Part shown: in pieces, positions 2,598 through 42,803 of the stretch | How the letters are laid out: each line of letters opens with the position of its first letter | Numbering within the stretch: position 1 is the first letter of the stretch | NCBI GenBank assembly: GCA_016178705.1 | Contig: JACOST010000008.1 | Coordinates: 102,069 to 166,068 of the forward strand | Source of the DNA: Deltaproteobacteria bacterium | Lineage (GTDB): Bacteria; Desulfobacterota; Binatia; HRBIN30; JACQVA1 | Length of the DNA: 64,000 nt | Direction: 5' to 3' | The notes under the pieces: generated by a model | Seen by the model: the letters and a program-made list of their open reading frames with translations, nothing else | Database searches by the model: none | Told to the model about the DNA's origin: nothing | Program-made: the position numbers and the translations under genes

Positions 2598-3512
2598 ATG
2601 GCCGATTTGATCTTGCACCAGTACGACACCTCGCCGTTCTCCGAGAAGATCCGCAAGATCTTCGCGCACAAGCATCTGGCGTGGCGCGCGGTCGAGCAGC
2701 CGACCATCATGCCGAAGCCGCAACTGATCCCGCTCACCGGCGGCTACCGCAAAATTCCGGTGCTACAGATCGGCGCCGACGTGTATTGCGATACGCAGCT
2801 CATCGCGCGCATTATCGAAGGGCTACATCCCGAGCCGACACTCTATCCCGACAACAGCGAGGGCGCGTGCCACGCCATCGGGATGTGGGCGGACCGGTTG
2901 TTCTTCTTCTCCACCATCCCAGTGCTGTTCGCGCTCCTCGGCGACAACCTGCCGCAGGCATTCATCGACGATCGCACCAAGATGATGCCCGGCCGCAACT
3001 TCGCCGACATTCCGAAGCTGGCACCGTACGCGAAGGAGCAGTGTCGTGGCTTCGCGGCCTGGCTCAACGCACAGCTCAGTGACGGCCGCGCCTTCCTTCT
3101 CGGTCAGCGGTTCAGCTTGGCCGACGCGGCGTGCTACCACCCGGTCTGGTTCCTGCGGAACGTGCCGCCGGCGGCGACGGTGTTCGACGAGTTCCCCAAG
3201 CTGATCGCCTGGTCGGAACGCATCAAAGCCATGGGTCACGGCCAACGCAGCGACATGGACCCCGCCGACGCGTTGCGCATCGCGCGTGAGAGCAACAGCG
3301 CGACGAAGGAAGTCATCGATCCGAACGATCCCAGCGGTTTGAAGCCGGGCGACAAGGTTGCTGTCACTCCAGACGACTACGGCTTCGATCCGGTCGCGGG
3401 CACGGTAGTGATGTCGTCAGTGCACGAGGTCGCCATCCGGCGGCAGGCAGCAGAAGTCGGTGAGGTAGTGGTGCACTTCCCGCGCGTGGGATTTCGCGTC
3501 GACCGAGCGTGA
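2598..3512 (+). CDS. Glutathione S-transferase family protein
   Basis: 304 aa with an N-terminal thioredoxin-like GST_N region (HQYDTSPFSEKIRKIFAHKHL...IPVLQIGADVY) and a C-terminal helical domain. Intact ORF. Confidence 0.7.
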   Translation: MADLILHQYDTSPFSEKIRKIFAHKHLAWRAVEQPTIMPKPQLIPLTGGYRKIPVLQIGADVYCDTQLIARIIEGLHPEPTLYPDNSEGACHAIGMWADRLFFFSTIPVLFALLGDNLPQAFIDDRTKMMPGRNFADIPKLAPYAKEQCRGFAAWLNAQLSDGRAFLLGQRFSLADAACYHPVWFLRNVPPAATVFDEFPKLIAWSERIKAMGHGQRSDMDPADALRIARESNSATKEVIDPNDPSGLKPGDKVAVTPDDYGFDPVAGTVVMSSVHEVAIRRQAAEVGEVVVHFPRVGFRVDRA

Positions 3513-4234: not shown

Positions 4235-4476
4235 CGTTACGCATCGCCCACGAGAGCACGAGCACGACGAAAGAAGCCGCCGACCCGAACGACCCGAGCG
4301 GCCTCAAACCCGGCGAGAAGGTCAGCGTCACCCCAGACGACTACGGCTTCGATCCGGTCGCGGGCACGGTAGTGATGTCGTCGGTGCATGAGATCGCCAT
4401 CCGCCGCAACGCAGCGGAAGTCGGTGACGTGGTAGTGCACTTCCCGCGCGTGGGATTTCGAATCGACCGAGTGTGA
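4235..4476 (+). pseudogene. 3'-terminal fragment of a GST gene paralogous to 2598-3512 (encodes only the last ~80 codons, no start codon)
   Basis: 4241-4479 aligns with 3273-3515 at about 88% nucleotide identity, with differences mostly at third codon positions. The in-frame translation DALRIAHESTSTTKEAADPNDPSGLKPGEKVSVTPDDYGFDPVAGTVVMSSVHEIAIRRNAAEVGDVVVHFPRVGFRIDRV* parallels the GST C-terminus. The open frame begins right after a stop at 4232-4234. Confidence 0.6.
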
Positions 4477-28524: not shown

Positions 28525-29652
28525 CTAAGCTATTTCCGTCTCCCCCTTTGGGCGCGGTCCTTCGCCATTCTCGCTCAGTGGCGTCATGCCGGGCAGAAAT
28601 GGTGTTTCGGTATTGCCGCCGTCGCTCTTGACGTGCAGAATCATTCGCACCACGTCGGAACTAGCGTTCACTTGCCAGATGTGAATGTCTGGATGCTCGC
28701 GGGCGAACACTCGAAATATCTCGTCAGCGAATCCCTGGCCAATACTTTCAACCCCAGAGAAGTCGAGAACGACCTCCCTAAAGTGGTCAACCCGCTTGAG
28801 GAGTCGGCGCGCCTGCGATCGAGAAACCAGCATCTCGCCGTCATGCTGAGCAAGGCTTGCGACCAAGTGGGTGCGCGTAAACCCGTAGTGGTCGGTGCTC
28901 GGCGCAAATTGGTTGAACACTTCCAACGCTGTTCGCAGCGACAGAGGATGGATGGTCATGTGGACATGGGTCCCTGCCGCTGGGGCCGGGTCTATCTCTA
29001 ACAGCCAGTCCTTTTCGTCACGGTGCGCGAAGTACAACTGGGCCGACATGATGCCGAACAGATCGAACATCCTGGAAGTAAAAAAGATGCCTTCGCCACT
29101 GTGGTGGGCATGGTCGGTTGTGAGTTTTCCCTTTGAGAGTTCCAATACAGCGTGTCGCGGATCATCAAGTCCGAAGGCCCTTTGGAGCTTGGCGAAGATT
29201 CCGACGCCGTGGTCGACGACGGTCAGCCCGATCGCTGCGGCCGTGCGGCTGATACCAACGACAAATGCGGGAGACTCTGAATGCACGATCGCGTTGTTCA
29301 CGATTTCCGTGATCCCGTGTTGACAAATGGTTCGCACGTTTGCCGGTACGTCCTTCAGGTGCGGTAGAATCTCATTTCGCCATACCTCATCTTCGTTGAC
29401 GCCAGGACCGATCTCTCGTCGTGCGACATGGTTCACCAGTTGGGCGAGACAATACGATCTGCCCTTTGTATCTCCATTGGGAATGAGCCAACCCATCTGG
29501 ACAAGATCATGTAGGTGGCGATGTACTGCCTGCCGACTCACATCGAAGTGTTCCGCAGTCACTCTGGCGATGTCACCAGGATGGGCCGCGACATTGTCCA
29601 CAATCCACCGCTGCATGGACTCCTGCTCTGACATGGCCGTATTTGAAACCAT
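28525..29652 (-). CDS. HTH – GHKL (HATPase_c, RsbW/SpoIIAB-like) – STAS-like (DUF4325) fusion protein
   Basis: N-terminal wHTH (DIARVTAEHFDVSRQAVHRHLHDL). GHKL N-box ITEIVNNAIVHS, G1 VVDHGVGIF, G2 HHSGEGIFF. C-terminal VVLDFSGVESIGQGFADEIFRVF...VNASSDVVRMI matches the DUF4325 consensus. Confidence 0.55.
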   Translation of the reverse strand: MVSNTAMSEQESMQRWIVDNVAAHPGDIARVTAEHFDVSRQAVHRHLHDLVQMGWLIPNGDTKGRSYCLAQLVNHVARREIGPGVNEDEVWRNEILPHLKDVPANVRTICQHGITEIVNNAIVHSESPAFVVGISRTAAAIGLTVVDHGVGIFAKLQRAFGLDDPRHAVLELSKGKLTTDHAHHSGEGIFFTSRMFDLFGIMSAQLYFAHRDEKDWLLEIDPAPAAGTHVHMTIHPLSLRTALEVFNQFAPSTDHYGFTRTHLVASLAQHDGEMLVSRSQARRLLKRVDHFREVVLDFSGVESIGQGFADEIFRVFAREHPDIHIWQVNASSDVVRMILHVKSDGGNTETPFLPGMTPLSENGEGPRPKGETEIA

Positions 29653-29797
29653 GATCGCGCGTTTGTCAACCTACACGCTTTGATTTGGCAACGGGACATG
29701 GTAGATTTGCGCCGTTCTTCGGTTTTTGGTGGTAACGATGGCTCCAAATAGTCAATTGATGCTTGACACTCAAGCAAAAATATCATATACTCCGGGC

Positions 29798-30652
29798 ATG
29801 AACAGATTGCCCCTAGCCAAGCGCGCCCAAATCCTCTCGCTGCTCTGTGAAGGTTCGTCGATGCGCTCAGTGTCGCGGCTCGTGGACGTGTCGATCAACA
29901 CCGTCACCCGCGAGCTGATCCTTGCCGGCCAGGCATGCACGGCATTCCACGATCAGGTGGTGCGCAACGTGAACTCCAAGCGCATTCAGTGTGATGAGAT
30001 TTGGTCGTTCTGCTACTCCAAGGCGAAAAACGTCCCGGAAGAGAAGCGAGGGAAGTTCGGGTACGGCGACGTGTGGACGTGGACGGCAATCGACGCCGAT
30101 TCCAAGCTCTGTCTTTCGTGGTTTCTTGGCGGACGCGATGCGGGCGCGGCCTACTACTTCATGATGGACCTATCGGAACGCCTCACGTCGCGCGTGCAAC
30201 TCACGACCGACGGGCACAAGACGTACCTCAGCGCCGTTGAATCCGCGTTTGGCATCGGGATCGACTATGCGATGCTGGTGAAGATTTACGGCGCATCGCC
30301 CGAGGGCGAAACGCGCTACAGCCCAGCGGTCTGCATCGGCACCGAACGCCACGCGGTCACGGGCGACCCGGACCCCGAGCACATTTCAACGAGCTACGTG
30401 GAACGCTCAAACCTCACGATGCGGATGCACATGCGCCGCTTTACTCGCCTCACCAACGCCTTCTCGAAGAAGATCGAGAACCACGGCCACATGGTTGCGC
30501 TCTATACGGTCTGGTACAACTTCGTGAGAATCCACAAGACGCTGCGGATGAGTCCGGCGATGGCTGCTGGTGTTACGTCGGCCCTCTTGTCGATGGAAAA
30601 CGTGGTCGAGATGGTCGATCAGTGGGAAGCGGCGAAAAAGACCGCGACGTGA
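29798..30652 (+). mobile_element. IS1-family transposase (single-ORF form with HTH + DDE)
   Basis: CDEIWSF...TTDGHKTY...ERSNLTMRMHMRRFTRLTNAFSKKIENH parallels E. coli IS1 InsB (DEQWGY...TDGWPLY...[28 protein letters not shown]). There is an AT-rich stretch just upstream (29770-29795). Terminal inverted repeats are not defined. Confidence 0.7.
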
Positions 30653-30669
30653 TAGAGACCAAAGCCGCA

Positions 30670-31119
30670 ATGGAAACAGAGGACAACCCACCACCGCGCG
30701 CCAGCGTGAACTACCGACGCGGCCTAACACGCTTGTATGTTGTGATCTCGGCCCTCTGGATTGCATTTGTCCTAGTCGGCGTGCCGTGGTGGGCACGTGA
30801 TACATGGATACGGAACGCTAGCGTGGCTTTGGAGCAGAAAAAGCAGGAGATGTCCTCCCGCGACGCGGCCCTGAAGAAGTCCCCGATCGACCAACGCGAA
30901 GCGGATGAGCATCAACGCCTCGCCGACGAACATCAGCGTGACGCCGAGTGGTTCCGGCAGCACGCAGACAACTGGTGGTCAGAAACCTGGCTTGCCCCGC
31001 GCCTGTTGTCGCTTTGGGCAATCGCCCTCGGCGCAATACCAATAGCTCTCTATGGCATTCTCTACGCACTGATTTCGGGACTGGACTGGGCCAAGCGCGG
31101 CTTCAGAAATTCAAACTGA
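30670..31119 (+). CDS. Hypothetical membrane protein (2 TM helices)
   Basis: Hydrophobic segments LYVVISALWIAFVLVGVPWW and LLSLWAIALGAIPIALYGILYALI. No other motif. Confidence 0.3.
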   Translation: METEDNPPPRASVNYRRGLTRLYVVISALWIAFVLVGVPWWARDTWIRNASVALEQKKQEMSSRDAALKKSPIDQREADEHQRLADEHQRDAEWFRQHADNWWSETWLAPRLLSLWAIALGAIPIALYGILYALISGLDWAKRGFRNSN

Positions 31120-31205
31120 GACACTACCCCTGCCTACTGTCCCTTGACCGTGTCGCAGCGGGAAGCTATCACCGTCGCGCGCTAGCCGACAGTGTTCACA
31201 CCCAT

Positions 31206-31289
31206 GCGAAAGTGGCGGAACTGGCAGACGCGCAGGATTCAGGATCCTGTGGGGTAAAACCCGTGGGGGTTCAAGTCCCCCCTTTCGCA
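31206..31289 (+). tRNA. tRNA-Leu (anticodon CAG), long variable arm
   Basis: Acceptor stem GCGAAAG/CTTTCGC, D-arm TGGCGGAACTGGCAGACGCG, anticodon stem-loop CAGGA-TTCAGGA-TCCTG (CAG at positions 34-36), long variable arm, T-arm GGGGGTTCAAGTCCCCC. No CCA encoded. Confidence 0.8.
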
Positions 31290-31488
31290 CTTCGTCCGTT
31301 GAGCGCTAACGCATTTGCCAGATCTACCTGACGCTGCGTTTGTTGCTGTTTCTCGCTACCACCCAGCAGGCCCACGACCCGCATCGCAGCGCTTCGCGAA
31401 GTAAGATGCGATAGCCGGAAGCTAACACTCCGGAACGAATAGAGGACCCCTTCCCTCCCCGAGCGCCTGTTCGGCGATCTAGGGAGCG

Positions 31489-31512
31489 TCGTCGCTGGCA
31501 TCCCACGACATG
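31489..31512. repeat. 24-bp exact direct repeat, copy 1 (copy 2 at 33946-33969)
   Basis: tcgtcgctggcatcccacgacatg occurs twice. On the minus strand it encodes MSWDASDD, which is the C-terminal end of the PPOX-like gene at copy 2. Confidence 0.8.
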
Positions 31513-31665
31513 CGCCGGCGCGCCAACTATCAGCGACACGATCACGGCCGCGCCGCGTCTGGCCATCATCTACCACGATCTCTCGTGACGGCATCCTCGA
31601 TACGGTCGGACAGGGAGCGATGCCGTTGCCGACACACACCCCGTTTGTGTTACCGCGCGATCACC

Positions 31666-32808
31666 CTATTGGCACGCGAACGTGCCGGTGACGACGACGT
31701 CACCGGTTTGCTCGTCCAGGTTGCCGAATGCGCTCACCTGCGACGAGCCGCTCAGTCCGTCCATCGGATTGCCCGCCATGATCTTACCGCAGTCGAGCGC
31801 CGACCCGGTGACCTTGGTCCGGCAGTGACTCGCGCCGCAGACCTGCCCGTCGGCGATGCTGGTGCCCTGGATATCGCTGGTGTTCAGGATTTGCGCCGTC
31901 GCCGTTCCGGTGGTGGTCGCCAGCAGGTTGGGCTTCCCTATGCCGACATCGTCGGCGGTACAGGGAATGCCGTCCGGCCCCTCTGGGGCGCCCGCCGTGT
32001 TGGGCGGCACGGTCTTGCACGTACCGCCGTCCGGCAACAGGCTGACCGACGTATTCGAGTTGATCACCGCCGAACCAGTCGGGCCGGAGCCGCTGAAGGT
32101 AGTCACCGGCATGGCGTTGCACGCCGGCTTGCTGCTGCATAGGCTAGGGTTGTGCGGATGCATATCCGAACCGTCTTCCGGCGTCCCGCTTGTGCAATTC
32201 GGATCGGGGTCGGGCGTGTCGCAGTGCGTGTCGTGGTCGATGCTGTAGAGGTAGTTCACATTCGCCAAGCCGGCGGAGCCGCAGCCGGCTTTGCCTTCGG
32301 CGGAGTTCATGCCGCCGAAGGCGGCCACCGGCACGCTGCGCACGCAGGCGCAGCCCACGCCGGACACCTTGACGGGATCGAACGTCATATCGGGCGCCGC
32401 GATGACGATCGGCACCTCCATCGCGGCGAAGGCAGGCGTCGATGACCCGGCGTAGAAAGTGGAATCCGTCCGTGGATGCCCAGTGGTGAGCGTTTGCTGG
32501 CCGGTGAGGCGGAGCTGGATCGCGAAGATGGCCGTCTGCACCTTGGAGACGGTATCGGGGCCGAACACGCACAAGCGGCGGTTTTCCACCGTGCAATTGG
32601 CCGCACAGCCGTCGCCGCCGATGGTATTGCCATCGTCGCATTCCTCGGAACCTTCCATCACGCCGTTGCCGCAGACAGCGCCTGTACTGGAGGGCGTGTT
32701 CGCCGGGGTAGCCGTCCCGCCTTCGTTATCACCGCCGCAGGCGGCGAGGAAGATCGCCATGCCGCCGGCCGCGAGGATCGCGCCGAACCACTGGTTCCGA
32801 GTCTTCAT
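31666..32808 (-). CDS. Secreted lipoprotein with myxobacterial-type cysteine-rich repeat
   Basis: Lipobox LAACGG. VCGNGVMEGSEECDDGNTIGGDGCAANCTVE matches the Myxococcus cysteine-rich repeat (CGDG...EECDDGN...DGC...C..E). The remainder is Gly/Thr/Cys-rich. Confidence 0.6.
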   Translation of the reverse strand: MKTRNQWFGAILAAGGMAIFLAACGGDNEGGTATPANTPSSTGAVCGNGVMEGSEECDDGNTIGGDGCAANCTVENRRLCVFGPDTVSKVQTAIFAIQLRLTGQQTLTTGHPRTDSTFYAGSSTPAFAAMEVPIVIAAPDMTFDPVKVSGVGCACVRSVPVAAFGGMNSAEGKAGCGSAGLANVNYLYSIDHDTHCDTPDPDPNCTSGTPEDGSDMHPHNPSLCSSKPACNAMPVTTFSGSGPTGSAVINSNTSVSLLPDGGTCKTVPPNTAGAPEGPDGIPCTADDVGIGKPNLLATTTGTATAQILNTSDIQGTSIADGQVCGASHCRTKVTGSALDCGKIMAGNPMDGLSGSSQVSAFGNLDEQTGDVVVTGTFACQ

Positions 32809-33183
32809 GTCATCCTCCTCAACTAGTGTACCCCGTGTCGATCTCGTGATGGCCAGGATCGAGCAGCGTGTTCAGCGACTGCGGAGTCGGCGACAGGGCA
32901 GCGGCGGGATCGATCGGAGCCGCCCGAGCCGGCAGCGCGGCACCGTGCAGTCACAGATCCCCGTCGAAGTATTTTTGGTACGTCTTACCGCGAATCCGCT
33001 CGCGGTTGATCGCGAACTGCCGCTGTGTGGCGACCGGATAGTACGTGACCCGGTTCTTCATGCTCCCTTCCGTGGGAACGGGTGTGCGCCAAGGTAGTGC
33101 GCATGCCACTCCGCGGTGAGGCGGGAGAACGTCGGCGCGGTGAGCTCGGCGGGGCGATGTCCAGCGGGCTGCCATCGTGGCGC

Positions 33184-33789
33184 TCAGAAGCGGAGCATGT
33201 CGACCGGGCCTGTGCCCTCGGGAAGCGGCGGTCGCGCCGTGAGTGTCTCGATCGGCTCGCCGGCCTCGTAGCGCGCGACGAGTTCCTCCGGATCAAAGAT
33301 CACGCCGATCGGATTGGCGGAGAACTCGCCGCTGCGCATCCAGGCGTCAATCGCCCGGGCGGAGGGCATGCTGTCGACCTGCAGCTCGACGCGGTTGCCG
33401 TCGGGATCCTTGTAGTACAGCGAGGTGGTCGGCCCGCGGTTGATGCACCAGTACGGCTCGATACCGGCTGCCTTGAGGCACCGGAAGGTGTGCAACAGAT
33501 CGCCGAGATCCGCGTAGCTGAACGCGATGTGATCGGTGCCAGCAGCCATCATTGGCTGCTCTTCGAGCCCAGGAATACTCGCGATGGCGATCCGATGGTG
33601 CTCGTCGTCGTAAGTGAGAAAGGCGAGTACGCCGTCGGAGTGCACCACCTCGGCGCCGAGGACAGTGCAATACCAACGTACCAACTCGTCGAAGCGCGCG
33701 GTACGACGCACGACGTGTGCAAGCTGGCGCGGCTTCACCACGCCGCGATTCACGGACAGCCGACGTTGGCGGTCTTCCCGAGTGCTCAT
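33184..33789 (-). CDS. VOC-family protein (glyoxalase/extradiol dioxygenase fold)
   Basis: MSTREDRQRRLSVNRGVVKPRQLAHVVRRTARFDELVRWYCTVLGAEVV... shows the typical VOC beta-alpha-beta-beta-beta module pattern. ATG at 33789; the track ORF from 33948 starts inside the 24-bp repeat. Confidence 0.55.
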   Translation of the reverse strand: MSTREDRQRRLSVNRGVVKPRQLAHVVRRTARFDELVRWYCTVLGAEVVHSDGVLAFLTYDDEHHRIAIASIPGLEEQPMMAAGTDHIAFSYADLGDLLHTFRCLKAAGIEPYWCINRGPTTSLYYKDPDGNRVELQVDSMPSARAIDAWMRSGEFSANPIGVIFDPEELVARYEAGEPIETLTARPPLPEGTGPVDMLRF

Positions 33790-33916
33790 GTGTTCTCCTG
33801 TCTCCTGCAGGTCCTTGGCCGTTCGTTGAAAACGTCCCTCTTGGATCGGGGCCGGACCAGAACGAGGAAATCTTCCTGCGTGGAAATCGCGCTCGTGCCG
33901 CGACCCCGTGCTCCGT

Positions 33917-34486
33917 TCAGGGGGAGGGACGTGCATCGTCGCTGGCATCCCACGACATGAGCGAGCTCACCCAGTGCGTGATCGGCTCCTCTTGGTCGTT
34001 GCGGTGGAGATGGCGCGGAGGCTGCGCGAACGTCTCATAGGGCTGGCAGCGGAGGACGACCCGGCCCTCCTGCTCCGCCATCGCTTGGACCATGGGGCGC
34101 GCGTGATCGGGAAGGGGCTGGCCCGACATACGACCGGCCACGGCCATCATGACGTCGACCACCAGCTCCGGATCGGTCTCGACGCGAGCGTCGCAATAGA
34201 CTTGAAGATAGGCGAAGGGCCAGCGCTCGTCGAGGATGCACAGGCTCACCTTGCCGTTGCGAGCGACCGCCTTCGCCTTGGCACGACCGCGCATGGTGGA
34301 AACGAGCAGCTCATCGCCGTCAGTCGGCACGTAATACACGATAGACATAGCTGGACCGTCCAGGCGACGGGCGTTGCCGAAGACGCAGGTGCGGTGGGTC
34401 CGGACGAAGGTCCGCCGCTCGGACGGTAGCATGTCGCGATCGGTTGGGGTCGTGAAGGGTTCAACGGGCCACGGTAGCAAGTGCAT
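33917..34486 (-). CDS. PPOX-class (pyridoxamine 5'-phosphate oxidase-like) probable F420-dependent oxidoreductase
   Basis: MHLLPWPVEPF...RTCVFGNARRLDGPAMSIVYYVPTDGDELLVSTMRGRAKAKAVARNGKVSLCILD fits the PPOX-class F420-dependent enzyme pattern. Divergently transcribed from the TetR gene. Confidence 0.55.
   Translation of the reverse strand: MHLLPWPVEPFTTPTDRDMLPSERRTFVRTHRTCVFGNARRLDGPAMSIVYYVPTDGDELLVSTMRGRAKAKAVARNGKVSLCILDERWPFAYLQVYCDARVETDPELVVDVMMAVAGRMSGQPLPDHARPMVQAMAEQEGRVVLRCQPYETFAQPPRHLHRNDQEEPITHWVSSLMSWDASDDARPSP
33946..33969. repeat. 24-bp exact direct repeat, copy 2
   Basis: Identical to 31489-31512. It overlaps the last 8 codons of the PPOX-like gene on the minus strand. Confidence 0.8.
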
Positions 34487-34509
34487 TTGGGGCTCTCCTT
34501 CGGAGCAGA

Positions 34510-35259
34510 TTGTATTATCGATCGATAATACTATATCGTAGCTCCGTGAGTTACACAAGCAAGGGCCGCCCCCGCGTTCGTCGCGATCGCAAGAACCTGC
34601 GCTCACAGTTGTTGGACGCAGCGCTCGTCGAATTCGGCGCGAAAGGATTCACCGGCGCATCGACGCGAGCCATCGCCCGGCGCGCCAACGCCCACCAGCC
34701 GCAGATCAACTACCACTTCGCCTCGAAGCGCGCGCTGTGGAACGCGGCGCTCGAGCACCTCTTCGCTCTGCTTGGCGACGCCATGGGCGGCGTCGTAGTG
34801 CCCCCGCGCACCGGCCGGAGGCACGACGTCCAGGCGCTTGCGGATGCGTTCGCCGAGGGTATCCGATGCTTCGTGCGGTTCGCGGCCGCGCACCCTGAGC
34901 TGAACCGGATCGTGGTGCACGAGGCGACGGCGGCGAGTGAGCGACTCCGTTGGATGACGAAGCGACACGTGCGGCCGTTCTACGAAACCGTCCGCGCGCT
35001 CTGGCGTCCGCTGCGCGCCGCCGGGATCGCGGCGCCCATCGACGAGAAGCTGGTGCACTACGTGCTCGTCGGTGCCGCCTCGCTACCCTACGTCAATGCT
35101 CCCGAGGCGCGGCTCCTCACCGGCGCCGAGCCAACCGATCCGGCCTGGGTTGAAGCGCACGCGGATGCCCTGGTGGCGACGTTGCTGCCCGGGCGGACCG
35201 AGAGGCCGCGAGCAGCGCGGCGGGAGGTTGCTTTCGCGAGACGCCGTCGGACCAAGTGA
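34510..35259 (+). CDS. TetR/AcrR-family transcriptional regulator
   Basis: N-terminal HTH ...RSQLLDAALVEFGAKGFTGASTRAIARRANAHQPQINYHFASKRALW. The start may be GTG 34546, downstream of the palindrome. Confidence 0.75.
   Translation: MYYRSIILYRSSVSYTSKGRPRVRRDRKNLRSQLLDAALVEFGAKGFTGASTRAIARRANAHQPQINYHFASKRALWNAALEHLFALLGDAMGGVVVPPRTGRRHDVQALADAFAEGIRCFVRFAAAHPELNRIVVHEATAASERLRWMTKRHVRPFYETVRALWRPLRAAGIAAPIDEKLVHYVLVGAASLPYVNAPEARLLTGAEPTDPAWVEAHADALVATLLPGRTERPRAARREVAFARRRRTK
34513..34530. promoter_or_regulatory. 18-bp perfect palindrome TATTATCGATCGATAATA in the divergent PPOX/TetR promoter region (probable TetR operator)
   Basis: Read directly from the sequence. It lies between minus-strand ATG 34486 and the TetR ORF, in an AT-rich context. 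Confidence 0.45.
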
Positions 35260-35317
35260 CGGAGAAGAACGGACGCTGACGGCAGCGTCTGCATTCTTTC
35301 ATGCTTAGCCCGCTGAC

Positions 35318-35362
35318 CCTGTGGGGCAAGACCCGTGGGGGGTTCAAGTCCCCCCTTTCGCA
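35318..35362. repeat. Direct repeat of the 3' end of tRNA-Leu(CAG) (45 nt, 3 differences): att-site-like island boundary
   Basis: cctgtggggcaagacccgtggggggttcaagtcccccctttcgca versus tRNA 31245-31289 cctgtggggtaaaacccgtgggggttcaagtcccccctttcgca. No matching 5' half upstream, so it is not a second tRNA. Confidence 0.7.
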
Positions 35363-35407
35363 TCTAAATTCCTGCTCGACAAATCTCGCCGAGTTGCGCG
35401 CCCGCCG

Positions 35408-35455
35408 CGGCATGGCCGCGTAGAGTCACTCAAGCCGCCTTCGCCGTGACGGACA
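35408..35455. repeat. 48-bp direct repeat, copy 1 (includes the last 8 codons + stop of the higA-like gene and 24 nt downstream)
   Basis: cggcatggccgcgtagagtcactcaagccgccttcgccgtgacggaca matches 36197-36245 with 2 mismatches. Confidence 0.75.
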
Positions 35456-35750
35456 ATCTAACGCGCGTCTTCTTCTGCAGGGTACGGACGATGCCGAAGA
35501 AATTTTCGGTGCTCGGATTTCCGTGCGGTGCCAGCATCCGATGGAGGCTCTTGCTCGGTTTGTTGACTGCCGCCGCGAGGGCCTCGAAGCCGACCGTCGC
35601 GTTAACCAAATCGCGCAAGATAGCCTTGCCAGTAGATGTGTCGCCGGCGAGATAGGCGTTGATCGCTTCGCTAAACAGCGCTTGACGGAATCGCGCATCG
35701 CGCTGGGCTCGTGCCAGGATGGTTTCCCTGAAATCTCGTGTGAGCGCCAT
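35430..35750 (-). CDS. higA: HigA-family addiction-module antidote protein (HTH)
   Basis: MALTRDFRETILARAQRDARFRQALFSEAINAYLAGD...FFGIVRTL matches the addiction-module antidote (HigA) family pattern. Immediately downstream of the killer gene. Confidence 0.65.
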   Translation of the reverse strand: MALTRDFRETILARAQRDARFRQALFSEAINAYLAGDTSTGKAILRDLVNATVGFEALAAAVNKPSKSLHRMLAPHGNPSTENFFGIVRTLQKKTRVRLSVTAKAA

Positions 35751-35768
35751 AATCTCCTCTCTGACAAT

Positions 35769-36122
35769 TCACGCCTTCCGGCGCCGGTAGTCGGCCCATC
35801 GCGCTCTTGCCGAGGCGATGGCTTCCTGCTGTCGTTGCTTGCTGCTCCCACCCAGCAAGATCACCAGGGCATCTCCATCTCTGCCGAAATAGACGCGGTA
35901 GCCAGGACCAAACTCGATCTTCCGTTCGAACACACCGGAGCCAACACCTTTCACGTTCGAAAAATTGCCAGCGGCCAGCTGATGGACAGCCGCAGCCACT
36001 TTGGCCGCCGCCGGCGCATTCAACGAGTCGAACCACCTCGCGTAGGCGGAACGGCCGTGGCCATCGAGGTATTCAACGAGCCGGATCGGCGCCACGCATG
36101 AAAGTAACATAAATGTTACCAT
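35769..36122 (-). CDS. higB: Addiction-module killer protein (RelE/HigB-like toxin)
   Basis: MVTFMLLSCVAPIRLVEYLDG...GNFSNVKGVGSGVFERKIEFGPGYRVYFGRDGDALVILLGGSSKQRQQEAIASA fits the putative addiction module killer family. ATG at 36122 sits within the inverted repeat GTAACAT-AA-ATGTTAC. Confidence 0.65.
   Translation of the reverse strand: MVTFMLLSCVAPIRLVEYLDGHGRSAYARWFDSLNAPAAAKVAAAVHQLAAGNFSNVKGVGSGVFERKIEFGPGYRVYFGRDGDALVILLGGSSKQRQQEAIASARARWADYRRRKA
36104..36119. promoter_or_regulatory. Inverted repeat GTAACAT-aa-ATGTTAC overlapping the higB-like start codon (candidate autoregulatory operator)
   Basis: Read directly from the sequence. TA operons are typically autorepressed at palindromes near the start. 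Confidence 0.3.
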
Positions 36123-36140
36123 TGTTGCAACCGCGGCATC

Positions 36141-36177
36141 GGCGGGCACCATCCATAGATCCGGCGGAGCCTCCTCG
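36141..36177. repeat. ~37-bp direct repeat, copy 1 (copy 2 at 37710-37748 immediately after the stop of the 36505-37710 gene)
   Basis: ggcgggcaccatccatagatccggcggagcctc versus ggcgggagccatccataaatcgggcggagcctc (4 mismatches). Confidence 0.65.
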
Positions 36178-36196
36178 AACCGGGCGGGATTTCGGC

Positions 36197-36245
36197 GGCA
36201 TGGCCGCGTCGAGTCGCTCAAGCCGCCTTCGCCGTGACGGACATG
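36197..36245. repeat. 48-bp direct repeat, copy 2 (orphan higA 3'-end remnant upstream of higB)
   Basis: The minus strand reads ...ATGTCCGTCACGGCGAAGGCGGCTTGA, i.e. SVTAKAA*, the same C-terminal codons as the higA-like gene. Confidence 0.75.
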
Positions 36246-36504
36246 CCGGAATCGCGACCGAGGCACATCGCGCATCTGGCTTGGGGCACTTCCCCCAGCA
36301 AACGTTGGAGAGCGTAGTGTCTGCCTTCGATCGCCAGTTCCTGTACCAAACTCCTCTTGGCCGGACTCTTGCGTTACATTCATTCGACGCCTCGAAGATG
36401 CGCAACAACATTCCCCTTAGTTCGTTGCCATCCAGGCAGGGGTGAATACGGCCAGGCACTCATCGCGGGGAAGTTCGGTATTTCAGCTCAGATCAAGGGG
36501 AGGA

Positions 36505-37710
36505 ATGAACGGTCACATGGAAAGGACAATGAAGGCGTCGCACGTCCTGCTCACGTCGAGAAGACTATCATTCTTGCCGATCTTTGGACTCGTGTTGGTC
36601 GCGTTGAATACGGGAGCTACGTTACAGGCACAATTCCCTGCTCGCGGAGACGATGTTACGCCGTCGCTCGGCCAATTTAATGTCGTCGTTGATCCCCACT
36701 TCGAGGCTGCAATCCAGAGCAATCCCGCGTATGGCCCGTTTCTCTCCAACAAGGGCGGTAACTTGAATTTCACCAGCCCGATCCTCTTTGATCCGACAAC
36801 AACGATCGGGCGAAGTGACCCGCTCAGCGCAGGTTCGGCTGAGGATATCGCCGGGGTGCTGTCGGGGACTTTGGCGCCGCGCCTGCTTCAAGACGGCCAA
36901 TTCACGGTGAGGCCCTCCTTTGCGGAGGGCCCCGACGGCACGCACGAGGTTCACACTTTCATCGAATCCCTCCACCTGATGGGAAATGGATTCGAAGTGA
37001 AGGCCGGAGACCAAGCTCCGCGGCGGCCAATCAGCGTGGGTGAGGTGGAGTCTCTGTCCGGCAACAGCGGGAATCCGATTCAGGACTTCCCGGCTAACAG
37101 CTTTTTCGATGTCTTCGTTGAGGTAGACGTTCCCGCTCTGGGGGGATTTCCGAGTGTCCAGTTGGTCAATGTCGATCCCCTCTTGGTTCAAAGCGACAGT
37201 ATCACCAGCTTCCCGCCAACCGTTCTCTATGTACACGGGAACTCTTCCGCCGTGCCGCTATACTTCTACGCGGACATACCTGTTTTCGGCGTTCATCGAG
37301 GGGACCTGTTCGGCCAACTGACTGTGGCCGGCCACGGGGTCGGCTTCACCGAGGCGGACGTGGCGGAGTTCGAAGCCAAGGAAATGGAATCCGAGCAGCA
37401 TCGTGGTCGTCTGCCGCTTCAGGCCAATCCAATCCCGCACGTGACCATTGTCGATGAGGTTTTGAACACTCCCACACCAACACCGACACCCACACCAACA
37501 GCGACCCCGACAACGACCCCTCCGCCCTGTATCGGCGATTGCGATGGCTCGCGCTCCGTGACCGTCGAGGAACTAATCATCGGGGTCAACATCGCGCTGG
37601 ACCAAGCACCGCTCAGCGGCTGCATGAACTTCGACAGCGACAACAGTCAGACGGTCACCGTCGAGGAACTGGTGCAGGCAGTCGGCAACGCGCTGGGCAA
37701 CTGCCCGTAG
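36505..37710 (+). CDS. Secreted protein with Pro/Thr linker and C-terminal dockerin-like tandem calcium-binding repeats
   Basis: Signal peptide MKASHVLLTSRRLSFLPIFGLVLVALNTGATLQA. Linker TPTPTPTPTPTATPTTTPPP. C-terminus CIGDCDGSRSVTVEELIIGVNIAL...CMNFDSDNSQTVTVEELVQAVGNAL has two DxDxS/N..VTVEEL repeats. The start is one of ATG 36505, 36517 or 36529. Confidence 0.5.
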   Translation: MNGHMERTMKASHVLLTSRRLSFLPIFGLVLVALNTGATLQAQFPARGDDVTPSLGQFNVVVDPHFEAAIQSNPAYGPFLSNKGGNLNFTSPILFDPTTTIGRSDPLSAGSAEDIAGVLSGTLAPRLLQDGQFTVRPSFAEGPDGTHEVHTFIESLHLMGNGFEVKAGDQAPRRPISVGEVESLSGNSGNPIQDFPANSFFDVFVEVDVPALGGFPSVQLVNVDPLLVQSDSITSFPPTVLYVHGNSSAVPLYFYADIPVFGVHRGDLFGQLTVAGHGVGFTEADVAEFEAKEMESEQHRGRLPLQANPIPHVTIVDEVLNTPTPTPTPTPTATPTTTPPPCIGDCDGSRSVTVEELIIGVNIALDQAPLSGCMNFDSDNSQTVTVEELVQAVGNALGNCP

Positions 37711-37748
37711 GCGGGAGCCATCCATAAATCGGGCGGAGCCTCGGCAAC
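37710..37748. repeat. ~37-bp direct repeat, copy 2
   Basis: See 36141-36177. Confidence 0.65.
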
Positions 37749-37822
37749 CCCGGCCTGAGGCTGGCCCGGGATGCCATCCGCGGTTACCTCGAATGCCCTG
37801 TGTATCAACGAGAAGAGAAAAG

Positions 37823-37895
37823 TGGAGCTGAACGGAATCGAACCGTCGACCTCCTGAATGCCATTCAGGCGCTCTCCCAACTGAGCTACAGCCCC
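37823..37895 (-). tRNA. tRNA-Ala (anticodon GGC) with the G3:U70 identity pair
   Basis: The reverse complement GGGGCTGTAGCTCAGTTGGGAGAGCGCCTGAATGGCATTCAGGAGGTCGACGGTTCGATTCCGTTCAGCTCCA folds as a canonical cloverleaf. The anticodon loop ATGGCAT gives GGC. Acceptor pair 3:70 is G:U. Confidence 0.8.
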
Positions 37896-37944
37896 ACAGG
37901 TGAGTGGACGCAAAAGTTGTAACCGAAACGCTACGGCAGGGCAA

Positions 37945-38007
37945 GGTTTTGGATTGCGGATTGGGGATTGCGGAGTGCGGAATGCAGAGTGCGGAATGCG
38001 GAATGCC
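37945..38007. repeat. Heptamer tandem array (GGATTGC/GGAATGC/GGAGTGC units, about 9 units)
   Basis: ggttttggattgcggattggggattgcggagtgcggaatgcagagtgcggaatgcggaatgcc. Confidence 0.8.
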
Positions 38008-38027
38008 ACCACGGTCCGCGCGAATGA

Positions 38028-38090
38028 GTCACGAACACGACTCACCAGTCACGAATCACGATTTCACGATCTCACGACCTCACGGTCCGC
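38028..38090. repeat. Heptamer tandem array (CACGAAT/CACGATT units, about 8 units)
   Basis: gtcacgaacacgactcaccagtcacgaatcacgatttcacgatctcacgacctcacgg. Confidence 0.75.
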
Positions 38091-38401
38091 GCAGACGGAT
38101 GTCGTCTTTGCCCTCCATCATCTCGGGCGTGACGATGTAGGTACCGCGGCAGGCGTTGTCCCAGATTTTCTGCGTGGCATCCGCATCGCCGAGGGTGACC
38201 GCGTACACCAGCACGCCGGTGACACCACCGATGATCGAGTAGACCAGCTTGAGCGGCAGGTAGACGATGTTGGTCAGCACCGCACCGGTGATCACGATCG
38301 GACGGTGTCCCTCGTCTTCTGCGTCTCGCCGTACCGCGTGAGCCGGCGCCACGAGCAGTGCGATCACGATGATTGCGATGAACGTTCGACTGCTCCCACG
38401 C
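38080..38401 (-). CDS. Small hypothetical membrane protein
   Basis: MRGSSRTFIAIIVIALLVAPAHA...IVITGAVLTNIVYLPLKLVYSIIGGVTGVLVYAVTL has two hydrophobic helices. The start is uncertain. Confidence 0.3.
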
Positions 38402-38429
38402 ATCCGCCACCTCCTCGTCCGCAGAATAC

Positions 38430-38512
38430 GGAGTCCAAACCTCAAAGTCCAAGGTTCAAAGTCAACTCTTGGGCTTGGAACTTTGGACTTTAGACCTTGG
38501 ACTTTGGACTCA
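38430..38512. repeat. Heptamer array with inverted symmetry (AAAGTCC units then GGACTTT units); overlaps the last codons of rarA
   Basis: gagtccaaacctcaaagtccaaggttcaaagtcaactcttgggcttggaactttggactttagaccttggactttggactc. Confidence 0.75.
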
Positions 38513-39863
38513 TCTTTTCCCGCCAGCGCTCGAGGCGCTCTTTGATCGCGCGCTCTTCGCCAATGTCGGTGGGCTCGTAGTAGCGGCGGCCGGCGAGCCG
38601 GTCGGGCAGGTGTTGCTGCGCGACGACGTGTTCGTCGTAGTCGTGAGCATACTTGTAGTCGCGCCCGTAACCCAATCCCTTCATCAGCGGCGTCGGCGCG
38701 TTGCGCAAGTGCAGGGGAGTGGACAACGCGCCGTGTTCCTTGACGTCGGCGGCGGCCGCCAGCATCGCCTTGTACGAGGCATTCGATTTCGGTGCAGTGG
38801 CCAAGTACGTCACCGCTTGCGCGAGCGGGATACGACCTTCGGGCAAGCCGATAAAATGGAACGCGTCCTTCGCCGCCACCGCGATCTGCAACGCGCGCGG
38901 ATCGGCGTTGCCGACATCTTCGGCCGCAAAGATCACCATCCGGCGCGCGATGAAGAGCGGATCTTCACCGGCTTCGATCATCCGCATCATCCAATACACC
39001 GCCGCGTCGGGATCGCTGCCGCGCATGCTCTTGATGAACGCCGAGATGACGTTGTAGTGCTCTTCGCCCGCTTTGTCGTAGAGCAGCGCGCGGTGCTGCG
39101 AAGCTTCTTCGGCGTGCGTCAACGCGATCACCGGCGTGCCCGCTCGGCCGGCGAGATCGGCGGCCGCTTCGAGCACGTTGAGGGCGGAGCGCGCGTCGCC
39201 GTGCGCTTGCTCGGCGATAAACGTGCGGGCCGCCGCATCGAGGGTCAGACGGCGCTCGCCCAAGCCGCGCTCGTGATCGTGGAGAGCGCGATCAAGCAAG
39301 CCCGCGATTTCCTCGGCCGTCAGCGCCTGCAGCACAAGCACCGAGCAGCGCGACAGCAACGGCGCGATCACCTCGAACGAAGGATTCTCGGTGGTCGCCC
39401 CGATCAACACGATCGAGCCGTCTTCGACGTGGGGCAGAAACGCATCCTGCTGCGCCTTGTTGAAACGGTGGATCTCGTCGACGAACAGAATCGTGCGGCG
39501 CCCGTTGAGCCGTAGGGCCTCGTGCGCTTCTTCGATGACCTGACGCAATTCCTTCACTCCCGAGAGCACGGCGGAGAAGTGGGTGAAGTGGCACTGCGTC
39601 GAGTGCGCGATCAGCAGCGCGAGTGTGGTCTTGCCGGTGCCTGGAGGTCCCCACAGAATCAGCGCGTGCAGCCGTTGGCCGTCGATCATCTCGCGCAGCA
39701 AACGGCCGGGCGCGATCAGATGACTCTGACCGATCACTTCGTCGAGACTGCGCGGCCGGATGCGATCGGCGAGCGGGGCACCCTCCTGGCGCACGCGCTC
39801 GGCCTCGGCGGTGAACAAATCCGGCCCGCTGCCGCGCATGGGAGATCGCTTGGGCATGCGCAT
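38490..39863 (-). CDS. rarA: Replication-associated recombination protein A (AAA+ ATPase RarA/MgsA)
   Basis: Walker A GPPGTGKTT, Walker B ILFVDEIHRFNKAQQD, and a C-terminal MgsA helical domain. Confidence 0.85.
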   Translation of the reverse strand: MRMPKRSPMRGSGPDLFTAEAERVRQEGAPLADRIRPRSLDEVIGQSHLIAPGRLLREMIDGQRLHALILWGPPGTGKTTLALLIAHSTQCHFTHFSAVLSGVKELRQVIEEAHEALRLNGRRTILFVDEIHRFNKAQQDAFLPHVEDGSIVLIGATTENPSFEVIAPLLSRCSVLVLQALTAEEIAGLLDRALHDHERGLGERRLTLDAAARTFIAEQAHGDARSALNVLEAAADLAGRAGTPVIALTHAEEASQHRALLYDKAGEEHYNVISAFIKSMRGSDPDAAVYWMMRMIEAGEDPLFIARRMVIFAAEDVGNADPRALQIAVAAKDAFHFIGLPEGRIPLAQAVTYLATAPKSNASYKAMLAAAADVKEHGALSTPLHLRNAPTPLMKGLGYGRDYKYAHDYDEHVVAQQHLPDRLAGRRYYEPTDIGEERAIKERLERWREKMSPKSKV

Positions 39864-39920
39864 TCAATAGATGGTCTGCGTCGTGAGGTCCACTCGCGCA
39901 GATGTCGCGTTCCCCTGTAG

Positions 39921-39993
39921 GGGTGACGCATGCGTCGCCCGCGATCGAGGTGGTCGACCGCGGAGAAGACGGAGGGCGATGCATGCATCGCCC
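39921..39993. promoter_or_regulatory. Two related 20-bp palindromes (GGGTGACGCATGCGTCGCCC and GGGCGATGCATGCATCGCCC) in the divergent rarA / nadK-recN intergenic region
   Basis: Read directly from the sequence. The second is a perfect palindrome and the first has one imperfect pair. Spacing between them is about 33 bp. Confidence 0.4.
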
Positions 39994-40074
39994 CTACGTT
40001 TCAGAGACGGCCGCGTCTCCGTGGCAGCGGCACACGCGGTATGGTAGCGTTCGCGGCGTGACGGGATCCAACTG

Positions 40075-40932
40075 ATGCAGCGCATCGGGGTGGTGGTGAA
40101 ACGCGGGCGGGCCAAAGCGCTGGCCCTTGGTCGCGAGTTGGTCACGTGGCTGCGCCAACGCGATCTCGTCCCGCTGATCGATGCCGACAGCGCCACCGAA
40201 CTGCACGACGGCACGGGCGTCTCCAAGGCCGAAATGGCGGCGACCGCCGATCTCATCGTCGTCCTCGGCGGCGATGGGACACTGCTCAGCATCGCCCGCT
40301 GCCTGCGCGAGCGCGCGGTGCCGATCCTTGGTGTCAACCTCGGCGGCCTCGGTTTCCTCACCGCCGTCACCTCGGACGAATTGTTCCCTGTGCTCGCCGA
40401 AGTACTCGCCGGCAAGTACACGGTCGAGCAGCGCATGACACTGGCGGCTTCGCTGCGGCGCGGCGGTAGCGTCATCGGGACGTATCAAGCGCTCAACGAC
40501 GTGGTGATCACCAAGGCCGTGCTCGCCCGCATCATTGATCTCGAGACCAACGTCGATGGCCAACACGTGGCGACGTACAAGGCGGACGGCTTGATCGTCG
40601 CCACCCCCACCGGCTCGACTGCGTATGCGATGTCCGCCGGAGGCCCGATCGTCTACCCATCGCTCGGTGTCATGGTGCTGTGCCCGATTTGCCCCCACAC
40701 GCTCACCAACCGGCCGATGGTGTTGCCGGAAACCTCGGTGCTGCAAGTAACAGTACGCTCCGACGCGCAGCAGGACGTGGTCCTCACGCTCGACGGACAA
40801 GAGGGCTACCCGCTGCACAACGGCGACGTGGTCGAGATCCGCAAAGGCGCGAGCGTGGTGCCGCTGATCGACTCGCCCGACCGCCGCTACTTCGAAGTGC
40901 TGCGCCAGAAGCTGCGCTGGGGCGAGCGGTGA
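40075..40932 (+). CDS. nadK: NAD+ kinase
   Basis: GGDGTLL motif ([16 protein letters not shown]) and an NAD kinase C-terminal domain. Confidence 0.85.
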
Positions 40933-40946
40933 GGCGCATGCGCCGG

Positions 40947-41078
40947 CAGATGGCTGATCGCCGATGGCTGATCGCAGAGCGAGCGTTCCGACTGGTTTTG
41001 CGGTTCTCCCTCCCACCATCAGCCATCAGCCATGTGCCATCAGCCACTCCCGCCATCAGCCACACGCCATAAGCCACC
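40947..41078. repeat. Heptamer array with inverted symmetry (GATGGCT units then CATCAGC units) between nadK and recN
   Basis: cagatggctgatcgccgatggctgatcgc...accatcagccatcagccatgtgccatcagccactcccgccatcagccacacgccataagccacc. Confidence 0.75.
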
Positions 41079-41084
41079 GCGGCC

Positions 41085-42803
41085 ATGCTCCGTTCTCTTC
41101 GCATCGCGAACTTCGCCATCATCGACGAGCTGGCGCTGGAGTTTGCGCCCGGCCTCAACGTCCTGACCGGCGAGACCGGTGCCGGCAAGAGTATCATCAT
41201 GCAGGCGCTCGGGTTGCTCTGCGGAGCGCGCGGATCGGCCGACCTCATCCGCACGGGCGCCGACGAAGCGGCGATCGACGCGGTGCTCGATTTGTCTGCC
41301 GATGCCCGTACGGCCGCAACGGAGTTGGGCCTCGACGGCGACGACGAACTGAGCTTGCGGCGCATGATCGCGCGCGCCGGCAAAGGGCGGCTGCACCTCA
41401 ACGGCAGTCCGTCGACGCTGGCGGTGCTGACGCAACTCGGGTTGCGGCTGCTGCACATCTACGGTCAGCATGAGTATGCGCTGCTGTTGCACCCGGATAC
41501 GCATCTCGACTTGCTCGATGACCTTGGCCGGCTTACGGCGCCTCGGCACGAGTTCACCACGGCGTATCGTGCCCTGGTGGCTGCGCACCACAATCTGACG
41601 GCGCTCACACAGGGCGGGCAAGCGGCGCGCGCGCACGCTGAGCTGCTGCGTTTTCAAATCACCGAACTCGAAGCCGCGGCACCGGAGCCGGACGAAGAAT
41701 CTCACCTTCAACAGGAACGCGAAGTGCTGCGCCACGCCGAGCAATTGGCGCAAGCGTGTGACGGCGGCGAGGCGGCACTGTACTCGGGCGACGATGCGGC
41801 GGCGCCGGTTGTCGCCCGCATCCGCACGCAATTGCGCGACCTCGCCCGCATCGACCCGCGCCTCAGCGAGATCGCCGCGTTGCTCGACGCTGCGCATACG
41901 CAACTCGACGAGGCGGCGCTGCAGTTGCGACAATACGCCAATCGCATTCATCACGATCCAGACAGATTGGCGGCGGCCGACGAGCGGCTCGCGCTGCTGC
42001 GCCAGTTGGCGCGCAAGCACAACTGCCGCGGCGACGAATTGGCCGCGCAGCTCGAGACGCTACGCGCCGAATTGGATCGCGTCACCGGTGCCGGGCTCGA
42101 TCTCGAATCGGCACAGCAGGCGGTGACCGTCGCCGCCCGCGCGGCCTGGCGAAGCGCCGCCGCCCTCTCTGCGGTGCGGCGCCTCGCCGGGTGCGAACTC
42201 GAGCGGCGCATGCACGCCGAGCTACCGACTCTGGGGATGGAAGGGGCAACCTTCACCGTGCAGTTTGCCAGCGAGATGAACGCCAGCGAGCCGTCGGCGA
42301 GTGATCCGTTCGTCCTTGGCGAGGCGCGGCTGAGCGAACGCGGCGGCGATCGCGTCGAGTTTCATCTCAGCGCCAACCGCGGTGAGGCGCCGCGCCCGCT
42401 CGCCAAGGTCGCCTCGGGCGGTGAGCTGTCGCGCATCATGCTGGCGCTCAAGGTCCTCACCGCCGGTGCCGGCGAAGTCGACACGCTGATCTTCGACGAA
42501 GTCGACACGGGGATCGGGGGCACCGTGGCCGACGCCGTTGGGCGCCGGCTCAAGGCGCTCGCATGCGAGCGGCAGATCCTGTGCATCACGCATCTGCCGC
42601 AGATTGCGGTCCACGCGGATCACCACTTCGCAGTCGAGAAGCGCGTGCGCAAGGGCCGCACGGTGACCAGCGCAAAGGCGCTGAGTCCCGACGAGCGCGT
42701 TGTTGAGTTGTCGCGCATGTTGGGCGGTGCCGTCACCAGCCGCGAGGCGGAACGCTACGCGCGCCGCCTGATCTCCGAGGCGCACAAGGGGTCTCCAGCC
42801 TGA
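41085..42803 (+). CDS. recN: DNA repair protein RecN
   Basis: MLRSLRIANFAIIDELALEFAPGLNVLTGETGAGKSIIMQAL..., SMC-like coiled-coil, and a C-terminal signature ...LSGGELSRIMLAL...IFDEVDTGIGG. Confidence 0.85.
   Translation: MLRSLRIANFAIIDELALEFAPGLNVLTGETGAGKSIIMQALGLLCGARGSADLIRTGADEAAIDAVLDLSADARTAATELGLDGDDELSLRRMIARAGKGRLHLNGSPSTLAVLTQLGLRLLHIYGQHEYALLLHPDTHLDLLDDLGRLTAPRHEFTTAYRALVAAHHNLTALTQGGQAARAHAELLRFQITELEAAAPEPDEESHLQQEREVLRHAEQLAQACDGGEAALYSGDDAAAPVVARIRTQLRDLARIDPRLSEIAALLDAAHTQLDEAALQLRQYANRIHHDPDRLAAADERLALLRQLARKHNCRGDELAAQLETLRAELDRVTGAGLDLESAQQAVTVAARAAWRSAAALSAVRRLAGCELERRMHAELPTLGMEGATFTVQFASEMNASEPSASDPFVLGEARLSERGGDRVEFHLSANRGEAPRPLAKVASGGELSRIMLALKVLTAGAGEVDTLIFDEVDTGIGGTVADAVGRRLKALACERQILCITHLPQIAVHADHHFAVEKRVRKGRTVTSAKALSPDERVVELSRMLGGAVTSREAERYARRLISEAHKGSPA

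Follow-up and report, generated by a model that had tools for sequence, protein, structure and literature searches.

The toxin-antitoxin (TA) operon considered here lies in a 64-kb stretch of DNA (the window) from an uncultured member of the Binatia (contig JACOST010000008.1, assembly GCA_016178705.1), where it is bracketed by two copies of a short direct repeat. One copy, R1, contains the real 3' end of the antitoxin gene and the other, R2, an orphan copy of that end. The feature is real and is most likely a fairly ordinary scar of recombination, next to a TA operon that is intact and whose toxin belongs to a known family. On balance, the explanation we favour is that R2 is the non-functional stub of a second TA-unit copy, once in tandem with the first, whose body was replaced through illegitimate recombination by a neighbouring unit carrying a gene that we call gene G.

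The repeat, R, opens with GCGGCATGGCCGCGTMGAGTCRCTCAAGCC and is 49 nt long, with 47 of 49 positions identical between 35407-35455 (R1) and 36195-36243 (R2), whose starts are 788 nt apart. Read on the minus strand, R1 comprises the final 26 nt of the antitoxin gene (35455 to 35430; eight codons, SVTAKAA region and stop) and 23 nt of its 3' flank (35429 to 35407). R2, on the same strand, consists of an orphan antitoxin 3' end of 26 nt with the matching 23-nt flank, located 61 nt upstream of the -35 box of the TA promoter and 99 nt upstream of the GTG start of the toxin gene. Both mismatches fall within the non-coding 23 nt, the 26 coding nucleotides being identical, and the two copies have a perfect block of 27 nt in common. 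The C-terminus VTAKAA is conserved throughout the antitoxin family, and R2 therefore derives from the end of an antitoxin gene, not the reverse. Past R, no significant similarity was found between 36244-36360 and the body of the antitoxin gene (p = 0.18), and no terminator-like site was found within R. The original prediction had recognized a direct repeat made up of the antitoxin 3' end and an orphan copy; this description holds, but the repeat is 49 nt rather than 48, and the second copy, placed by the prediction at 36197-36245, is shifted by two positions.

R is the short direct repeat of highest similarity anywhere in the window. None of 100 dinucleotide shuffles of the window gave two R matches, and a third copy is absent from the window at up to three mismatches. 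The same arrangement was found in three assemblies, namely JACPZC010000026.1 (metagenome-assembled genome (MAG) GCA_016195705.1) and two Logan contigs from two sequencing runs, all of which stem from one population; it is thus not an assembly artefact. The names attached to RarA homologues assign the organism to Candidatus Binatia.

The module between the repeats is, judging from its sequence, an intact and self-contained type II TA operon with its own promoter and operator, a RelE/ParE toxin and a helical, putatively DNA-binding antitoxin. The toxin gene (36095 to 35769, minus strand, GTG start) encodes 108 aa of the RelE/ParE superfamily and precedes the antitoxin gene (35750 to 35430, minus strand, 106 aa) by a gap of 18 nt, which is the HigBA order; the pairing is retained in most of the 80 fetched loci. 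The toxin matches the NCBIfam model TIGR02683 with 85.7 bits (cut-off 62.85) over model positions 6-94 of 95 and phrog_3445 ('toxin') at 1.5e-20, while its Pfam Gp49 score of 20.6 is under the cut-off of 23.9. The promoter region (36104-36130, minus strand) contains a -35-like TTGCAA at 36130-36125 and a palindrome, GGTAAC-N6-GTTAC, at 36120-36104. The palindrome, in the form (G)GTAAC-N6-GTTAC(C), immediately precedes the toxin start both in the window and in 55 of 59 relatives, and is likely the operator of the TA operon.

The antitoxin had no match in Pfam (including HTH_3), NCBIfam (including TIGR02684), PHROGs or the PDB, by sequence searches and a PDB profile search. Its AlphaFold (AF2) model is all-helical, with six helices and a pLDDT of 85, and Foldseek returned weak matches, all with E > 1, to Xre-type helix-turn-helix (HTH) proteins such as HipB and the HTH domain of HicB3. 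The family is very large and highly conserved, with 7545 matches at E <= 0.001, the best 120 of which share 81-92% amino acid identity. Judged by source names and related loci, it extends over several phyla, with members in Burkholderiales, Nitrospira, Acidobacteriota and elsewhere. Plasmids carry it too, at about 55% identity and beside annotated RelE/ParE toxins; no phage carriage was found. The module thus resembles HigBA-type systems in its full-length fit to TIGR02683 ('upstrm_HI1419' toxins), its toxin-first order and its operator palindrome overlapping the promoter, but its antitoxin differs from theirs in having neither a HigA/Xre (HTH_3) nor a TIGR02684 match and no solved relative by sequence. 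The label 'HigB/HigA-like' given by the original prediction accordingly suits the toxin and the gene order; the antitoxin fits no HigA or other curated model.

The borders of the unit that is conserved elsewhere are sharp. Across about 90 related loci, nucleotide homology to the TA unit invariably covers the span between the -35 box (36134/36119) and the antitoxin stop codon (35430/35426), without ever entering the 23-nt flank or reaching further upstream. The minimal TA unit is therefore about 705 bp long, and R lies across its border, 26 nt of the repeat belonging to the unit and 23 nt lying beyond it. It follows that R2 copies the junction found at this locus, or a sister junction, and is not a general end of the element.

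A second direct repeat, D2, which the original prediction does not mention, was found on the other side of the TA unit. D2a (36127-36185) has a core at 36141-36185 that is 80% identical to 37710-37754, with the local alignment reaching 36127, and D2b (37697-37754; core 37710-37754) begins where gene G has its stop codon and is separated by 67 nt from the 3' end of a tRNA-Ala gene. The score of this pair (45-nt core, 80%) was reached by none of 300 shuffles. D2a is separated from R2 by a spacer of 9 nt (36186-36194), which we read as the junction of two segments. Beyond R2 lies the G unit (36260-37710, plus strand), comprising a conserved 5' region that starts at or before 36260 and the gene for a secreted protein of 397 aa (36517-37710). 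The closest relatives of gene G, on contigs L097 and L101, are about 85% identical at the nucleotide level, over 36260 to about 37490-37600 only; this homology begins at most 17 nt from R2 and leaves out D2b. D2 is not carried at the 3' flank of gene G in the relatives L097, L098, L100 and L101. On the plus strand the order is R1, TA body, D2a, 9 nt, R2, G unit, D2b, so that gene G is bounded by the D2 pair much as the TA pair is by R; the two cargoes, TA operon and gene G, face opposite ways. From the sequence, we interpret the locus as a pair of neighbouring segments that share their ends but differ in cargo. No sequence with significant similarity to D2 follows R1. A degenerate copy of R beside D2b was hinted at by MAFFT only, blastn-short found no R match there, and the candidate was not used.

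This layout is what a tandem remnant would be expected to leave. The repeats are direct, the orphan is a gene end together with its own flank, the rest of that gene is missing, and D2 marks the other end of the unit. D2a, 9 nt and R2, with both repeats direct, form the end-to-start joint expected of a tandem unit, which is one of eight possible arrangements. Because the homology of the G unit starts at most 17 nt from R2 and excludes D2b, G fills the slot of a TA body. We infer the following order of events. Duplication of the TA unit would have produced an ancestral tandem, [R-TA-D2], 9 nt, [R-TA-D2], and the second TA body would then have been replaced by gene G together with its promoter region, leaving the 49-nt stub. 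The replacement was probably an illegitimate recombination, and a GCAACYGC microhomology is present at the edge of D2. The stub reading is further supported by two scars of the same kind in the region. One is a toxin remnant (31300-31420, minus strand), a frameshifted C-terminal part of a TIGR02683-like toxin (..GYRIL..RVVGLLGGSEKQQQTQ..) that abuts a tRNA-Leu gene without an antitoxin gene. The other is an orphan end of a PNPOx-like gene (31457-31515, minus strand), which copies the final codons and 13 nt of 3' flank at 33904-33962, with a 39-nt ungapped core 85% identical, and is the second orphan gene end within the stretch between the tRNA-Leu and tRNA-Ala genes. There is also a precedent in the toxTA system of Haemophilus influenzae, in which TA loci were deleted with filler DNA and 87 bp replaced a 1015-bp deletion (PMC6957337). 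In both cases TA loci lose parts while remnants or unrelated filler stay; however, toxTA belongs to another TA family, and the remaining copy there is decayed, whereas here it is intact beside the stub. The original prediction had offered, as one of two possibilities, that recombination collapsed a tandem array of related TA cassettes. This comes close to the reading that we prefer, except that no orphan would remain after a clean collapse by homologous recombination.

Several points weigh against duplication followed by replacement. Two events are required, and the match between the ends of the replacement and the borders of the TA unit is suspiciously good. In addition, R is 4% diverged and D2 20%, so that R looks younger (Fisher p of about 0.02 with all sites taken as neutral, a gap that weakens when the coding constraint acting on R1 is considered). 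Alleles carrying TA alone or G alone within these flanks were not observed, and an intact tandem TA pair at this locus occurs in no relative, the closest of which is without the region.

These difficulties would be explained more naturally, namely the need for two events, the coinciding borders and the gap in divergence, if D2, the 9 nt and R together formed a site for a recombinase encoded elsewhere, and TA and G were cassettes inserted in tandem. The layout would then be that of integron arrays or of tandem integrative elements (attL, E1, attP-like junction, E2, attR). Two neighbouring segments with different cargo and common ends are in keeping with this idea, as are cargo borders that match those of units conserved elsewhere and the different divergence of the R and D2 pairs. 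TA cassettes are also known from chromosomal integrons; in Vibrio cholerae, higBA-1 and higBA-2 are cassettes of sedentary chromosomal integrons (cited in PMC6957337). The likeness extends to a small TA unit with its own promoter beside a single-gene unit, to repeats at the borders, and to a repeat that overlaps the 3' end of an open reading frame (ORF), as attC sites often do.

However, the machinery and the sites that such cassettes should have were not found. No integrase is present among the genes called in 29375-41750, and no recombinase other than an IS1-like DDE transposase (29726-30652), about 5 kb from the module, lies within about 6 kb. The folding z-scores of the R1 region and of the R2-D2a patch on both strands (-0.85, +1.16 and +0.51) are no better than those of shuffled sequence. 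By eye, no RYYYAAC/GTTRRRY motif pair was found near the repeats; a single GTTRRRY (GTTAGAT, 35462-35456) is unpaired and missing at R2. Furthermore, the three junctions share no common core, and R holds TA coding sequence and so cannot be a generic site. Searches with blastn-short found no further copy of R or D2 in the window or in about 100 fetched related loci, and exact-pattern scans of the JGI metagenomes and IMG/VR gave no match for either. An attC or integron interpretation was rejected on folding, on motifs judged by eye and on the lack of an integrase in 29375-41750. In comparison with integron cassettes, the locus has no attC palindrome or fold, no R''/R' by eye, no IntI nearby and two sites only, and its units face opposite ways. 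We therefore consider insertion as cassettes at recombination sites unlikely. The second possibility of the original prediction, a small integrative cassette with att-like ends, fails on the same tests, namely the missing recombinase within about 6 kb, the missing attC motif and fold, and the lack of extra copies of either repeat in the window, the related loci and the pattern scans.

Modules bounded by XerC/XerD sites offer another comparison. The pdif modules of Acinetobacter plasmids carry TA pairs such as higBA between 28-bp dif-like sites in inverted orientation. They share with the present locus discrete TA-sized modules that are bounded by short sites and have neighbours with different cargo. 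However, the repeats described here are 45-49 nt long, direct and not dif-like, and one of them contains coding sequence.

Repeats around the TA unit are not confined to the window. Among 45 related loci (the L004-L083 set) with a complete TA pair and 400-nt flanks, direct repeats with a local score of at least 20 were found on both sides of the unit in 10, as against 2 of 134 shifted control positions; the controls were not placed at gene boundaries, so that the enrichment is partly trivial, reflecting a small operon between repeat-rich intergenic regions. This frequency, often inside repeat arrays, speaks for the cassette idea, but the repeats concerned are lineage-specific, mostly multi-copy (dispersed or REP-type), and unrelated in sequence to R or D2. 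In Nitrospira contigs L072, L078, L080, L081, L062 and L070, a conserved palindromic element of about 150 nt (AACCATTTCGCGGCGCGTGGCGGGGAGCTGG...CCAGATAGACTGCCTCTGAATCGCCCTCCCCTCAC) recurs every 0.5-1.7 kb, for example at 292-422, 1421-1551, 3144-3274 and 4450-4580 of L072; its copies lie between small genes that include the TA pair, and no Rfam family corresponds to this element. Contig L076 has a 285-nt repeat in four copies, L028 and L012 have three or four repeat copies, and L044 has a REP-like 125-nt element beside the TA unit. In L071, a nitrifier betaproteobacterial MAG, the TA unit lies between two copies (4369-4417 and 5311-5359) of the 5' end of an ABC-F ATPase gene, about 14 codons long, the downstream copy of which overlaps the antitoxin stop codon.

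A broader version of the cassette idea holds that the minimal TA unit is a mobile cassette, swapped at short sites on either side of it through a recombinase whose gene lies elsewhere. The window would be one snapshot of this process; the repeat-flanked or arrayed copies in about one-fifth of the relatives, from several phyla and including Nitrospira, may then be other snapshots. If true, this would amount to an integron-like cassette system without canonical attC sites, but we regard it as quite improbable.

The presence of true dispersed repeats beside some relatives' TA units (the 125-nt element of L044 and the 150-nt element of Nitrospira) also raises the possibility that R itself is a REP- or MITE-like dispersed repeat that overlaps the end of the antitoxin gene by chance. 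R, however, occurs in two copies in 64 kb and in none of the related loci or pattern scans, is neither palindromic nor significantly folded, and consists for one half of conserved antitoxin coding sequence. This possibility is extremely remote.

The close similarity of the R copies suggests a different addition to the history of the locus. If an older antitoxin stub stood beside G, a TA circle of 788 bp, a sister chromosome or a foreign allele could have recombined with it at the 49-nt homology, by a Campbell-type event or unequal crossover. R is 96% identical with a 27-nt perfect block, and about 27 nt is close to the minimum length for RecA-dependent recombination. The other scars of the region are all much less similar than R, and, by sequence logic, a crossover in D2 between a TA allele and a circle with 9 nt, R, G and D2 would yield exactly the order observed. 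Nevertheless, an earlier TA copy and its replacement would still be needed, so that such a re-insertion extends duplication and replacement rather than taking their place, and no alternative alleles were observed. We consider this step unlikely.

It can also be asked whether R2 and D2a arose together, through repair of a break between the divergent promoters by template switching that copied the 3' flanks of the antitoxin gene and gene G. Such an event would suit the presence of two short pieces derived from nearby sequence, separated by 9 nt and lying in the non-coding interval of a divergent gene pair. On the other hand, their order and orientation fit the junction of a tandem unit, one of eight arrangements, and D2 is 80% identical although a copy made along with R should be of similar age. 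To our knowledge, templated insertions of such length are not well documented in bacteria. A templated patch is accordingly very doubtful, and a stub left by duplication and replacement of a TA unit remains the explanation that we prefer.

The surroundings of the locus are variable. An intact tRNA-Leu(CAG) gene (31206-31290, plus strand) forms the left border of the variable region, and a tRNA-Ala(GGC) gene (37822-37895, minus strand) lies at its other end. The contig of the closest relative, L084 (RarA 96% identical at the amino acid level), is colinear with window positions 44232-37800 at 91-94% nucleotide identity and diverges at 37800, 22 nt past the 3' end of tRNA-Ala; it is without the entire tRNA-Leu to tRNA-Ala stretch of 31.3-37.8 kb. 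Together with the tRNA-Leu copy on the other side, this divergence marks the 6.5 kb between the tRNA genes as variable DNA. Comparison with related strains thus yields no 'before' state, since the closest relative lacks the whole region. From the sequence features described, the TA module lies within a scrambled, strain-specific hot spot that is bounded by tRNA genes and appears to have been rebuilt repeatedly. A similar setting is suggested for the relatives of gene G. In L097 (4460-7167) and L101 (2843-5320) gene G adjoins a MazE-Fic pair, and in L101 it breaks off at the point corresponding to window position 37457, after which come PDDEXK, Fic-cyclase and TIR-pentapeptide genes; these neighbours suggest that gene G there also lies within a variable, defence-like neighbourhood.

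A 3' fragment of tRNA-Leu (35318-35362, plus strand; 45 nt) lies 44 nt from R1 and matches 31246-31289 at 93%, confirming the attR-like tRNA-Leu repeat that the original prediction had placed beside the module. A strain-specific stretch between tRNA-Leu and tRNA-Ala, with this 45-nt repeat close by, recalls tRNA-linked islands with att repeats; however, R is not derived from a tRNA and no integrase gene remains. The two tRNA-Leu repeats form a feature of their own, which encloses 31291-35317 and not the TA module.

Apart from the two tRNAs, neither the window region nor the repeat-rich relatives yielded any known RNA family. Logan contig L002 ends inside tRNA-Leu (window position 31260) and inside tRNA-Ala (37853), which would fit branching of the assembly graph at both tRNA genes, that is, alternative content in the population. 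Fifty-five bp at the 5' end of a TetR gene (34537-34591) are missing from the NCBI contig record and present in one Logan contig; here either the strains or the assemblies differ. The interval from tRNA-Ala to the RarA gene contains short tandem and inverted low-complexity repeats (37951-37999 and 38431-38511), with GGATTGC/GGAATGC heptads and GGACTTTGGA-type arms, within or close to a small ORF that gene calling predicts in relatives as well.

Through RecA-dependent recombination, the R pair could on rare occasions allow the 788-bp TA segment to be lost or amplified, and the D2 pair could do likewise for gene G; loss of the TA segment would be counter-selected by the toxin. The locus documents a TA operon of uncultured Binatia in a repeatedly rebuilt hot spot bounded by tRNA genes, and by itself this matters little. 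The very large antitoxin family, with neither a Pfam or NCBIfam model nor a solved protein, is of some wider value. Meanwhile, the sharp borders of the TA unit and its frequent bracketing by repeats in unrelated genomes bear on how minimal TA operons move between genomes.

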